Shown here in pieces: positions 8,608 to 35,945 of a stretch of DNA of 39,596 nt. Both the position numbers and the translations under genes were made by a program. Location: positions 1 through 39,596 of IMG/VR virus record IMGVR_UViG_3300032250_000450; one strand, 5' to 3'. The notes under the pieces are model-generated. The model was given only the letters and a program-made list of their open reading frames with translations, ran no database searches and had not been told where the DNA came from. Source of the stretch: a virus. Lineage: Duplodnaviria > Caudoviricetes. Numbering within the stretch: the first letter of the stretch is position 1; each line of letters starts with the position of its first letter.

Positions 8608-9294
8608 ATGGCAAGTGGTAAAAGAGCAAGACGAGACAATGTAATTCAATTGGAACGTAACCCAGTAGAGTATGGATTTACAGATGTAAAACCTCTAAAC
8701 TTTATACAAGCAGAGTACTTAAGAGCAATTCAGTCTAATCAAATAGTATTCGGTGTAGGAAGTGCAGGAACAGGTAAGACGTATGTAGCAGCAACGTATG
8801 CAGCGGGAGAACTCTTTCATAGACGTATTCAGAAGATTATTCTGACTAGACCCAACGTAGAAACAGGACGTGGCCTAGGATTTTTACCAGGTACACTAGA
8901 GGAGAAATATGCTCCATATCTAGAACCCTTTGATAGTGTGTTTATTCGTAGCCTTGGAAAAGGTTTTTATGAGTACGCACTAAAAGCAAAAACAATTGAG
9001 CCTAAACCACTGGGCTTTATGCGTGGTGCAACATTTGACAATTGCATTGTTCTTTTAGACGAAGCACAAAATGCCACACGCGAAGAAATGAAAATGTTGT
9101 TATCACGCATTGGTAAAAATTGTAAAATGATTATTAGTGGCGATGTAGATCAAGCAGATATTCCTGATAGTGGACTATCAGACGCAATCAATCGATTAGA
9201 TCGTATTCCAGATATTGAAGTAGTCCGATTTATGGATGACGATATTGTCAGGTCTAAAATGTGTAAACAAATTATTTTAGCTTATAGAGATTAA
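8608..9294 (+). CDS. phoH: PhoH family ATPase
   Basis: GSAGTGKT Walker A, LTRP.VE, LGFLPG, FMRG.TF, DEAQN and GD..Q.D. Confidence 0.95.
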   Translation: MASGKRARRDNVIQLERNPVEYGFTDVKPLNFIQAEYLRAIQSNQIVFGVGSAGTGKTYVAATYAAGELFHRRIQKIILTRPNVETGRGLGFLPGTLEEKYAPYLEPFDSVFIRSLGKGFYEYALKAKTIEPKPLGFMRGATFDNCIVLLDEAQNATREEMKMLLSRIGKNCKMIISGDVDQADIPDSGLSDAINRLDRIPDIEVVRFMDDDIVRSKMCKQIILAYRD

Positions 9295-33779: not shown

Positions 33780-33937
33780 TACCAGTGCCTTATAACGCTT
33801 GCTATGATAAATAAATTTGTTATTATATAACTAAGTAAAATTATTGTACGAATTATGGCTATTCGATCAGCTTCACTATCTGTGTTGCCAGATTTTTCGC
33901 CTATTGCTTTACTCCATAACCGCCACAGATTTTTCAT
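33779..33937 (-). CDS. Small membrane protein (52 aa; not in ORF track)
   Basis: MKNLWRLWSKAIGEKSGNTDSEADRIAIIRTIILLSYIITNLFIIASVIRHW; TAATG overlap with the downstream gene. Confidence 0.7.
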   Translation of the reverse strand: MKNLWRLWSKAIGEKSGNTDSEADRIAIIRTIILLSYIITNLFIIASVIRHW

Positions 33938-34499
33938 CTAATTCCTGTAAGGCTGCTATTTTAGCTAAAACAAGATCAATTCTTGCTAGTACTTGTTCTG
34001 AAGTAAGCCAAATATCTTTGTTGTCTAGCATTGATTTGATCTCGTCTGGTGTTAAAAAGTCGTGATATACTTCTCGCAAGAAGTTTTCTGACCAAGCACG
34101 TTCAAACTGAAGTTGGTCAAACATTTCGCCACCTTTGCCAAATACACCTGCTGAATAGTTGTGAAACATAAATAAGCTGTGCGGTGTTACTTCAAACTCG
34201 TCTCCGTGAAGAAAGATCATTGTTGCAGCACTCATACAAGCACCTTCAACACTAGTAATCACATGAGCATTAGTTTCACTTAACACGCGCAAAAATTGCA
34301 GAGCCGTATATAAATCGCCTCCGCAACTATTAATGTAGATTTTAACTGTGTCTGTTGCACGAGCATTGCGAATAGTATCAAACCATTCACAATACTCACT
34401 GGCATCTTCAATTTCGCCTGACAGATAGAATTCGTATAAGTTCCCACTATTTTTAGTAAAAAACTGTTTTCCTGGTATGATTTTTGTTTCGTCTGTCAT
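33909..34499 (-). CDS. clpP: ClpP-family serine protease (S14)
   Basis: YLSGEI, YINSCGGDL, GACMSAAT (Ser), FMFHN (His) and KDIWL (Asp). Confidence 0.88.
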   Translation of the reverse strand: MTDETKIIPGKQFFTKNSGNLYEFYLSGEIEDASEYCEWFDTIRNARATDTVKIYINSCGGDLYTALQFLRVLSETNAHVITSVEGACMSAATMIFLHGDEFEVTPHSLFMFHNYSAGVFGKGGEMFDQLQFERAWSENFLREVYHDFLTPDEIKSMLDNKDIWLTSEQVLARIDLVLAKIAALQELDEKSVAVME

Positions 34500-34516
34500 G
34501 TATGCTTTCTGTAGTT

Positions 34517-34842
34517 TAGGGTCAAGTTTATTCTGTTACGAGGAAAACTTGACAAAACCCTAAGCAGTGTTTAGGCTGCTAATGCGAACTGTGAGTCGTT
34601 TGCGGTTACTTTTTTGTGCTTCTACGGCAGGGAACTCCCAACCCTAACGGCTTTAGCATTGCCGAGTTGTCCACTTGTTTACTCTTTGCCTTGTCGAATC
34701 TATAACAGCCCCAACATAAGGTATATCGCACTTACAGAGAGAACGCGTCCCACAGCTATGCATCGCTTCAATATACCTTATGGTGGAGCTGGCGGGATTT
34801 GCACCCGCGTCCAAAACACTTTTCTGTCTGCTTCTTACAACC
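34517..34842 (-). ncRNA. ssrA: Two-piece (circularly permuted) tmRNA, tag ANDSQFALAA
   Basis: Minus-strand order: acceptor piece GGAC-GCGGG-TGCAAAT-CCCGC-CAGCTCC-ACCA (34812-34781), then a hairpin intervening segment, then GGGGCTG-TTATAGATTCGAC (from 34712), then tag ORF 34603-34571. The acceptor stem has G3.U70. Outer ends are approximate. Confidence 0.92.
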
Positions 34843-34920
34843 ATATCAAAACACTCTAGCTAGCCGTGGAGCCCTTACTTATTCAGTGCGGTGGGGTTTT
34901 AACCCAAGAGTGTTTTGATA

Positions 34921-34995
34921 TGGTGCCCAATGTCGGAATCGAACTGACGACCTATCGCTTACAAGGCGAGTGCTCTGCCTCTGAGCTAATCGGGC
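34921..34995 (-). tRNA. tRNA-Thr(TGT)
   Basis: GCCCGATTAGCTCAG... CTTGTAA ... TTCGATT ... GGGCACCA. Confidence 0.92.
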
Positions 34996-34996
34996 A

Positions 34997-35071
34997 TGGC
35001 TCCAAAGGCAGGGATCGAACCTACGACCAATTGATTAACAGTCAACTGCACTACCACTGTGCTACTTTGGA
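34997..35071 (-). tRNA. tRNA-Asn(GTT)
   Basis: TCCAAAGTAGCACAGTGGTAGTGCA GTTGA CTGTTAA TCAAT ... TTTGGAGCCA. Confidence 0.93.
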
Positions 35072-35073
35072 AT

Positions 35074-35164
35074 TTGCTGGTTACTTTATCCAGCGTCAAT
35101 TACGAATGACAGTTCAATTGCTCGGACACTAATTACCGCTAGCATCAACGGACCTAAGGCAGGT
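35074..35164 (-). ncRNA. Candidate multi-hairpin ncRNA between tRNA-Asp and tRNA-Asn
   Basis: Consecutive hairpins ACCT/AGGT, CCGTTG/TAGCGG, AATT/AATT, GTCA/TGAC and GCTGG/CCAGC; no convincing ORF. Confidence 0.45.
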
Positions 35165-35166
35165 TA

Positions 35167-35241
35167 TGGCGGTCTTATGGGGTAACGATCCCCATCTACA
35201 GCAGTGACAGTGCTGTGTGCGTCCGTGAACACTTTAAGACC
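35167..35241 (-). tRNA. tRNA-Asp(GTC), atypical D/T loops
   Basis: GGTCTTA AA GTGT... CAGCA CTGTCAC TGCTG ... TGGGG ATCGTTA CCCCA TAAGACC GCCA. Confidence 0.88.
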
Positions 35242-35338
35242 ATTTTTAGTAGCGCCTGGTCGCCAATTCCAGGTCGCCTCAGTGTCAGGGAGGAGAATAA
35301 CACTTACACGCAATAGCCAATGAATTCGCTACTAAAAA

Positions 35339-35414
35339 TGGTACTCGGTACGAGATTCGAACTCGTGTGCTCGCCGTGAAAGGGCGGTATCCTAGGCCTC
35401 TAGATGAACCGAGT
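35339..35414 (-). tRNA. tRNA-Glu(TTC)
   Basis: ACTCGGTTCATCTAGAGGCCTAGGATA CCGCC CTTTCAC GGCGA ... CCGAGTACCA. Confidence 0.92.
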
Positions 35415-35420
35415 GTTGTT

Positions 35421-35504
35421 TGGTACGAGTAATCGGAGTCGAACCGATACGCATTACGCGGCAGATTTTAAGTCTGCTGGGTCTACCAATTCCCCCATAC
35501 TCGC
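35421..35504 (-). tRNA. tRNA-Leu(TAA)
   Basis: GCGAGTA... GCAGA CTTAAAA TCTGC, long variable arm, TTCGACT ... ACCA. Confidence 0.93.
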
Positions 35505-35737: not shown

Positions 35738-35767
35738 ATTATAACAAACTTTTACTATAAAGTTCAA
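35738..35767 (-). promoter_or_regulatory. sigma70 promoter driving the tRNA/tmRNA/clpP array
   Basis: TTGAAC-18 nt-TATAAT with TGt. Confidence 0.6.
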
Positions 35768-35774
35768 GTTTAAA

Positions 35775-35825
35775 TAAATAAAGGTTTAGGTTTACCTTGG
35801 TTTGGCAAACCTAAACCTTTGTTTA
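35775..35825. terminator. 19-bp inverted repeat (terminator or processing hairpin)
   Basis: taaataaaggtttaggttt / aaacctaaacctttgttta. Confidence 0.55.
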
Positions 35826-35874: not shown

Positions 35875-35945
35875 TGGTTGCGGCGGAAGGATTCGAACCT
35901 TCTAAGCGGAGCTTATGAGACTTGCTTCTACCCTGACTCACCGCG
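35875..35945 (-). tRNA. Atypical initiator-like tRNA-Met(CAT)
   Basis: CGCGGTG...CGCCGCA-ACCA (C1:A72), perfect T-arm, CTCATAA loop. D-arm is shortened and the anticodon stem is weak. Confidence 0.7.

Follow-up and report, generated by a model that had tools for sequence, protein, structure and literature searches.

The window analysed here is the whole of the virus record IMGVR_UViG_3300032250_000450 (Duplodnaviria, Caudoviricetes; 39,596 nucleotides), a 39.6-kb freshwater record whose gene content and order are T5-like, with a split NAD-dependent ligase, a D5-like regulator, a primase, a helicase, a polymerase and SbcC/D. Among cultured phages, the polymerase is most similar to those of Vibrio phages (48–49% identity), one of which, Ceto, is filed under Demerecviridae. 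The minus strand of the window carries a row of transfer RNA (tRNA) genes, Leu-Glu-Asp-Asn-Thr, followed by a transfer-messenger RNA (tmRNA) gene, and this row holds three stems that begin inside a CCA end and that we read as the closing helices of small-RNA cassettes (Table 1). The RNA genes next to the stems, namely tRNA-Glu, tRNA-Asp, tRNA-Thr and a permuted beta-type tmRNA, were confirmed by ARAGORN and Rfam. The tmRNA is of the two-piece betaproteobacterial type (RF04321, 123.9 bits with a cut-off of 47; RF01850, 89.4 bits with a cut-off of 84), the Rfam model placing the start of its acceptor piece at 34842, and the tmRNA type alone suggests a betaproteobacterial host.

The three inverted repeats described by the original prediction, which had been made from the letters of the window, are all present on the minus strand where it had placed them. 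Stem 1 (16 bp) lies between tRNA-Glu and tRNA-Asp and encloses 72 nt, stem 2 (18 bp) lies between tRNA-Thr and the tmRNA acceptor piece and encloses 49 nt, and stem 3 (12 bp) lies in the tmRNA intervening segment and encloses 44 nt. Folding z-scores are −4.2, −5.3 and −5.2, respectively, and for none of the three did any of 200 shuffles reach the same stability; the third fold took in the tmRNA acceptor stem, and the intervening segment folded by itself gives a z-score of −1.3, equalled by 18 of 200 shuffles. Stems 1 and 2 take in the NCCA end (discriminator base plus CCA) and run 3 nt (GGU) into the next RNA, so that their last pairs compete with its 5′ helix in the folded precursor. Stem 3 carries on directly from the acceptor stem, the two making up a single helix of 21 bp in which C74 is unpaired and stem 3 is the upper portion.

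Table 1. Features of the tRNA–tmRNA array with predicted cuts and products (window positions).
Feature	Position	Strand	Remark
Best sigma-70-like promoter upstream of array	35738..35767	-	Consensus match only, 10/12, extended -10
tRNA-Leu(UAA)	35421..35504	-	ARAGORN/Rfam
tRNA-Glu(UUC)	35339..35414	-	ACCA end paired with far arm of cassette 1
Stem 1, 5′ arm	35327..35342	-	ACCA + 12 nt; predicted cut between 35335 and 35334
Cargo A	35255..35326	-	Multi-stem RNA, covarying hairpin, pyrimidine-rich loop
Predicted RNA freed from cassette 1	35334-35245	-	90 nt
Stem 1, 3′ arm	35239..35254	-	Covers first 3 nt of tRNA-Asp
Stem 1, far-side predicted cut	between 35245 and 35244		Would leave 3-nt leader on tRNA-Asp
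tRNA-Asp(GUC)	35167..35241	-	
Asp-Asn spacer	35072..35166	-	Conserved RNA of another kind, without closing stem
tRNA-Asn(GUU)	34997..35071	-	
tRNA-Thr(UGU)	34921..34995	-	ACCA end paired with far arm of cassette 2
Stem 2, 5′ arm	34907..34924	-	ACCA + 14 nt; predicted cut between 34917 and 34916
Cargo B	34858..34906	-	Conserved three-hairpin RNA
Predicted RNA freed from cassette 2	34916-34846	-	71 nt
Stem 2, 3′ arm	34840..34857	-	At place of promoter in bacterial genes
Stem 2, far-side predicted cut	between 34846 and 34845		Would create 5′ end of tmRNA acceptor piece
Acceptor piece of permuted two-piece tmRNA	34781..34842	-	CCA at end; RF04321, RF01850
tmRNA intervening segment	34713..34780	-	68 nt; predicted cuts between 34781 and 34780 and between 34715 and 34714
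Stem 3, both arms	34782-34771 and 34726-34715	-	Extending acceptor stem
Cargo C	34727..34770	-	Self-complementary hexamer loop 34763-34758, predicted kissing loop
tmRNA coding piece	34516..34712	-	Tag ANDSQFALAA at 34603-34571

Relatives were sampled as 80 of the 332 viral loci with a gene related to that of the ClpP-like protein adjacent to the array, and the stem was sought from the first base after each encoded CCA; from 676 tRNA and tmRNA-acceptor ends, 22 without an encoded CCA and those less than 120 nt from a locus edge were dropped. An anchored stem (score of at least 11) follows 74 of 554 non-redundant CCA ends, compared with 11 of 1,108 shuffles, and at least three bases of the NCCA are also paired in 60 of the 74 stems, compared with 3 of 461 low-scoring ends. 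Under a strand-neutral rule that does not demand outer pairing, 82 stems are found at 541 ends, as opposed to 3 at 541 shuffled ones, and are spread over 35 of the 66 loci having CCA-ending tRNAs; the device thus recurs, as had been supposed. The stem sequences, described at the outset as unrelated, share one consensus 3′ of the CCA, U A U n W W A R Y A Y A Y U. The information in the 5′ arm falls to nothing beyond +14 (counting from the first base after CCA).

Several features of the 82 strand-neutral stems indicate that selection maintains the helix at the level of RNA, and on the strand of the tRNAs: G·U pairs number 50 and A·C mismatches 12, UGG comes after 63 stems, opposite CCA, also where no RNA gene comes after, and, among 64 cassettes, the fourth outer pair tracks the discriminator base (A:U 40, G:C 12, G·U 4, unpaired 8). 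The covariation in relatives that the original prediction had asked for is found in this pairing and in the cargos described below. Mini-elements inserted at tRNA 3′ ends were among its proposals. DNA mini-elements with terminal inverted repeats, or tRNA-primed retro-elements, could account for presence or absence at one junction and for movement between junctions, and the UGG with its complement of the tRNA end resembles a primer-binding site. Yet the excess of G·U over A·C speaks for RNA, the empty Glu-Asp junction of close relatives bears no duplication, so that this hallmark of a miniature inverted-repeat transposable element is missing, the complementarity to the tRNA end extends over at most 5 nt, and no reverse transcriptase was found in five relatives. 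We consider such an origin hardly credible.

Of 12 close loci, 8 carry cassette 1 at the Glu junction; in two the junction is a 5-nt spacer, and in the remaining two it holds an open reading frame or other sequence. Cassettes with GCA or CUA in place of CCA occur at seven loci (L026, L032, L034, L036, L043, L050 and L119). Both observations bear on another of the early proposals, a maturation-timing switch, in which the stem would mask the CCA end and so set when the tRNA is matured or charged. The UGG opposite CCA and the covarying discriminator pair agree with it, but the same cargos and stems follow GCA or CUA where CCA is absent, the conserved part is the CA-UA box, and close relatives L007 and L008 manage with a plain 5-nt Glu-Asp spacer, which makes a timing switch very improbable.

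The 64 spacer cassettes fall into 29 cargo groups, and one and the same cargo can stand after various tRNAs as well as within tmRNA intervening segments, alpha-type ones among them. None of the three window cargos is unique to its place, contrary to first appearance: cargo A also lies behind tRNA-Leu and, without CCA, behind the Asp-Asn spacer RNA, cargo B lies behind the tmRNA coding piece and behind another tRNA, and cargo C is found inside a stem without CCA. These pattern scans also gave many chance matches in unrelated genes, which were removed by context. In the 11 copies of cargo A four helices are kept while 15 of 28 pairs have changed on both sides, a count that is weakened by having been made on the alignment from which the structure was derived. 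The interior of cargo B is near-invariant in its five copies. Cargo C shows a different palindromic hexamer in each of its four distinct loops, and in another cargo, which the window lacks, 22 of 24 distinct loops contain a palindromic hexamer, with 11 different hexamers in all, compared with 14.6% in shuffles. Change from palindrome to palindrome, the mark of a kissing-loop homodimer, is therefore seen in cargo C and this one other cargo; according to passages of Kretsch et al. (PMC12286853), palindrome switching in OLE and GOLLD speaks for kissing loops between molecules. The self-duplex of the palindromic-loop hairpin is computed at −15.5 kcal/mol, and cargo C would likely act as a kissing-loop dimer. 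A common cargo whose palindromic loop switches freely (L014:5522-5626; L110, L113, L117-L122) is seen in spacers between tRNAs, in tmRNA intervening segments of both beta and alpha type, and in tandem stems that lack a tRNA. It is probable that the cargos are selected as RNAs in their own right.

The window cargos match no Rfam family at the gathering cut-off or at E-values up to 5, the cargos of relatives match none in 20 short loci or in L036, and the best 150 of 208 matches of the Rfam scan are all to tRNA or tmRNA. The earlier suggestion of antisense or guide cargo can be applied to cargo A, whose loop, atop the covarying hairpin, is pyrimidine-rich in 11 of 11 aligned copies and could pair with Shine-Dalgarno sequences and silence host or phage mRNAs. 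The loop sequence varies freely, however, one copy lacks CCU, and a loop of this kind is missing from cargos B and C. Within the window, complements to the cargos reach 10 nt at most, shuffles doing equally well (host genomes were not searched). Release of antisense RNAs thus appears rather improbable, and the lack of complements above chance led us to the guess that the cargos bind proteins as decoys or scaffolds, some of them as dimers. Such a role towards host proteins is a tentative assignment, with chances a little short of even.

Other readings of the cargos were tried and dropped. The sole reading frame that could make a peptide gene has 11 codons and occurs in cargo A only. For circularization, no RNA ligase scored above cut-off in five relatives, in which two weak matches are likely DNA ligase and RtcB was not searched. 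A likeness of cargos to pistol, twister, hammerhead or c-di-GMP motifs was discarded, as no Rfam match backs it, and in the Asp-Asn spacer the motif suspected of a Y RNA is not kept in homologues. This spacer RNA has variable inserts and no Rfam match, and a cassette with cargo A stands next to it in several relatives. By eye, cargos A and C have the short motifs UGARGC, GCU and UAAG in common, though arranged differently, and the two may represent a single core that has been circularly permuted. Some cargos contain a T-loop-like motif (L024:5386-5475, L036:6705-6794, L034:913-985 and the L070 intervening segment); the L036 record also encodes a TROVE (Ro60) protein, and T-loop cargos may be Y-like RNAs. 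A Ro60/TROVE gene is present in two of ten related records, four of the ten being fragments. The YrlA model (RF02553) gives no match for the window cargos at E-values up to 5 and one weak match in a relative, 29 bits with a cut-off of 69, over tRNA genes.

The shared consensus was compared with the signals of RNase III. Passages of Pertzev and Nicholson (PMC1540722) describe for the Escherichia coli enzyme a 4-bp proximal box by the cut (W, A, W, G), a distal box with U·G and U:A, and a helix of 11 bp; the orientation of the U·G pair is strictly needed in the distal box, and A:U is excluded at distal position 2. Passages of PMC3867540 describe two half-sites 2 bp apart and a box-to-box length of 22 bp. 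Proximal position 2 was accordingly set at the third base past the cut, from the numbering of the former source, and the distal box at 9–10 from the cut, from the 22-bp length of the latter. A cut after +4 is then the sole best register in 56 of 64 cassettes and in 28 of 29 cargo groups, the box score being 8.95 of 10, compared with 5.93 ± 0.18 for pair shuffles (maximum 6.61 in 2,000 shuffles). Since two of the ten box features are forced by the selection of cassettes, which detracts from this score, the scan was repeated on the unfiltered 82 stems. There the outer box WAWG stands at +4 in 65 stems and in at most two at any other register, the inner W, W, W in 72–75, the inner G in 42 and the distal U:A in 52; at +13 there are 20 U·G pairs and no G·U.

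A helix of at least about 11 bp is formed family-wide, by pairing to +14 plus four outer pairs, and the family likewise has the W-A-W-G proximal box without G:C at position 2, the inner side of stem 1 being at fault. Within the window, stem 2 (10 inner and 8 outer bp) shows nine of the ten box features and a complete distal box, stem 3 (12 inner bp plus the acceptor stem) has half a distal box, and stem 1 has just 8 inner bp unless the next hairpin stacks. This Glu-Asp stem is the worst fit of the three; relatives with an extra U:A pair fit the inner proximal box better. Because the outer box is formed by C75, A76 and the first two spacer bases, the stem has to begin inside the CCA, and because this box reads CA-UA, GCA-UA or CUA-UA can stand in for CCA-UA. 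No RNase III gene was found in five near-complete relatives, and the enzyme is present in four of five bacteria with a tmRNA of the host type. Cutting of the stems by RNase III is probable.

Among cultured phages, T5 carries an RNA in a comparable position, RNA III (rnaIII in AY543070), annotated as a ‘stable RNA with unknown functions'. Its annotated start lies 4 nt after CCA and its end leaves a 2-nt 3′ overhang, exactly as in the predicted cut, and at the RNA III junction of T5-like loci the stem is kept in five of six fetched, around three unrelated cargos. RNase III cutting would explain how T5 RNA III is made. Two further T5 RNAs, RNA 2H and RNA IV (L081:7809-7980 and 8839-8941), have their ends inside long helices that run into the flanks, with no upstream CCA. 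The window cargos have no T5 match by nhmmer, with the T5 locus L081 in the database; blastn of the window array against cultured phages gave only tRNA-length matches, with no record above 80%, and T5 is not among the best 30 of 561 matches.

The stems could instead be no more than protective end-to-end helices, with RNase E, RNase P and exonucleases excising the RNAs and RNase III uninvolved. The poor box fit of the Glu-Asp stem would agree with this, as would the 3′ end of T5 RNA III, which abuts tRNA-His and could be made by RNase P alone. Protection needs no fixed sequence, yet the consensus fits the proximal as well as the distal box in a single register and has U·G at +13; the pairing covers the NCCA, which lies outside any released RNA, and the annotated 5′ end of RNA III lies 4 nt inside the helix. 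Protection alone is therefore quite unlikely.

The tmRNA provides a second setting of the same stem. In phage intervening segments (59–238 nt) at least 8 of the first 10 positions are paired in 36 of 41 cases, and the best box register is a cut right after CCA (4.34 of 6, the next register scoring 2.95). Bacterial permuted genes were collected by a pattern with a segment of at most 42 nt, which gave at least 120 loci (L152-L271, mostly Rhodocyclales), 14 of 107 distinct matches being dropped as not permuted; with that limit, phage and bacterial segment lengths are not comparable. In these genes at least 8 of the first 10 positions are paired in 84 of 93, with a single best register in which the boxes fit a cut after C75 (4.24, next 2.70), and A76 is not encoded in 85 of 93. 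The bacterial segments have the same stem with a tiny loop, and stem and boxes being common to both, stem 3 is best seen as the hairpin of the host gene loaded with cargo. The acceptor piece is directly preceded by a cassette arm in 10 of 12 phage tmRNAs, and by promoter-like hexamers in bacteria (12 of 93 regions viewed, by eye). Stem 2 may thus have a second job, to provide a 5′ end for the acceptor piece, which is not a tRNA 5′ end. According to passages of PMC11915505, intervening segments can hold a tRNA and a repeat, without mention there of a cutting stem, and RF04321 models tRNA-domain pairs only; passages of PMC3968760 attribute the 3′ end to RNase III or E, but solely for the standard tmRNA of E. 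coli. We found no publication that assigns the intervening segment to RNase III, and Sharkady and Williams (2004) may describe the bacterial stem.

These comparisons also bear on a reading in which the stems serve only as RNase III punctuation in tRNA and tmRNA maturation, around filler that is degraded. Stem 2 offers the acceptor piece its 5′ end, bacterial segments have the stem with hardly a loop, and one cassette is almost empty (33 nt, L024). Against filler, the cargos are conserved and covarying, with palindromes kept by compensatory change; they move between junctions and phage groups and are also located where no RNA comes next; a 5-nt spacer suffices in close relatives, and T5 RNA III is annotated as stable. 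Degraded filler is an unlikely content of these stems.

We therefore favour, at a probability of roughly two in three, the reading that the stems enclose exchangeable small-RNA cassettes and are themselves predicted targets of RNase III, the freed RNAs possibly acting as decoys or scaffolds for host proteins. Of the four options in the original prediction, two, RNase III-type signals and release of small RNAs, are thereby taken together, and the others are set aside. In the proposed sequence of events, one transcript of the array would start at the 35738 promoter; sigma-70-like sites number 9 with 7.7 expected, the promoter being a consensus match only, and no second minus-strand match occurs from there down to 33779, hence none inside the array. 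Host RNase III would make a staggered cut 4 nt after CCA in the spacer stems and right after CCA in the intervening segment, freeing each enclosed RNA as a short stem-capped molecule. The 4-nt trailer would be trimmed by 3′ exonucleases and leaders of 2–3 nt removed by RNase P, trimming and leader removal of this kind being the established tRNA pathway. Stem 2 would give the acceptor piece a 5′ end that RNase P cannot make and that a promoter provides in bacteria. Cassettes would be exchanged by recombination between similar flanks.

A number of observations weigh against this reading. The box positions were taken from text and legends. Y:G at distal position 2 is not specific to the register (49 at +4, 50 at +2, 45 at 0), and five Glu cassettes tie between registers. 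Stem 1 at +4 has G:C at proximal position 2, which blocks binding of E. coli RNase III, and lacks a distal box. In the window intervening segment, distal position 2 is occupied by A:U in place of the required U·G. Sites cut naturally in E. coli agree poorly with the consensus according to passages of PMC5371410, and passages of PMC3074117 describe the distal box as dispensable for the Aquifex enzyme, so that a fit to the boxes is not proof. Contigs from RNA runs (four runs, of 24 with small shares) include close variants that cross the Glu cassette in 4 of 4, but protein genes of relatives are likewise covered, and, as contigs only, they establish neither transcription nor RNA ends; cargos B and C have no contig over them, which carries no weight. 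The cassettes come from related phages, so their counts are not independent and overstate the evidence. Cargos A and B have no conserved palindromic loop. The basis of the T5 RNA III ends is not stated in the AY543070 record, one Klebsiella phage locus and the tRNA region of Vibrio phage Ceto are without such a stem, and T5 RNA IV and RNA 2H show no clean 2-nt overhang.

Phage tRNA arrays are usually read as a supply of tRNA. If the cassette reading is true, they would also deliver a rotating set of small structured RNAs missed by annotation, much like rotating accessory protein genes, and dozens of small RNA types would be freed. The T5 stable RNAs, which have no recorded enzyme or function, would gain a precise, testable biogenesis, and an RNase III step would be predicted in the maturation of two-piece tmRNA in Rhodocyclales-type bacteria. 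A large number of new RNA folds, part of which bear a clear dimer signature, would become candidates for RNA-based counter-defence. A wider and rather doubtful version holds that T5-like arrays use host RNase III, reading a site of which each tRNA's CCA end makes up half, to produce at least 29 undescribed exchangeable RNAs, several self-dimerizing, as decoys against host RNA-binding or anti-phage proteins, and that the device expanded from an unrecognized RNase III site by which betaproteobacterial two-piece tmRNA is matured at its CCA end.

Several neighbouring elements may be mentioned. A ClpP-like protease gene (33909-34499, minus strand) directly follows the tmRNA, as in many relatives, and may act together with tmRNA tagging. 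At 35875-35945 on the minus strand lies a tRNA-fMet-like gene (CAU anticodon, CCA end) with a shrunken D arm, missed by ARAGORN and scoring 19.8 bits with the Rfam tRNA model, which has close homologues in many relatives; a long terminator-like hairpin (35775-35825) separates it from the array promoter. A 23-bp inverted repeat (96%; 37603-37625/37771-37793) surrounds 145 intergenic nt without tRNA and is possibly another stem-closed RNA. In L011-L050, a tRNA-like gene of about 92 nt, for which ARAGORN returns ‘???', lies about 50–600 nt after clpP, often with a cassette behind it; in L036 it matches tRNA-Sec weakly.

RNase III stems, two-piece tmRNA and T5 stable RNAs are each already known separately; new here, as judged from sequence, would be a variation on the RNase III processing stem that carries undescribed RNAs. 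Their combination was not found in a literature search to which the 1980s papers on T4 and T5 stable RNAs were external. As far as passages on known RNase III stems (the T7 R1.1 and uR1.1 minimal substrate and the rRNA leader-trailer) describe them, they have the helix of at least 11 bp and the W-A-W-G box in common with the present stems, and the distal U·G and U:A with part of them, whereas here the outer proximal box is made of the tRNA's own C75-A76, the outer helix has about 8 bp, a swappable cargo of 35–180 nt is enclosed, and cutting is predicted. The ornate RNAs GOLLD, ROOL and OLE likewise have no assigned function, the first two are often neighbours of tRNA islands in phages, and passages of PMC12286853 report palindrome-switching kissing loops for OLE and GOLLD; the cargos differ in being about one tenth the size, nested in a shared cutting stem and without Rfam match to them.

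Bacterial Y RNAs (YrlA) resemble the cargos as small structured RNAs beside tRNAs, with a T-loop-like motif in some relatives' cargos, and differ in that the window cargos have no Rfam match. Theta ribozymes also occur at phage tRNA 3′ ends; the elements described here start with UA inside a CCA-covering helix rather than with a site of self-cleavage. The intervening segment of bacterial two-piece tmRNA (RF04321, RF01850) has the acceptor-extending stem and boxes of stem 3, whereas the phage form encodes the full CCA, carries a structured cargo and lets a cassette take the place of the promoter ahead of the acceptor piece. T5 RNA III, finally, belongs to a T5-like phage and is a small RNA placed after a CCA end and ahead of the following tRNA, with a closing helix over the NCCA, annotated ends on the predicted register and a cargo swapped among relatives. 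It is unlike the window cargos in sequence, its stem has a sequence of its own, that T5 region contains no tmRNA, and its record names neither processing enzyme nor function.

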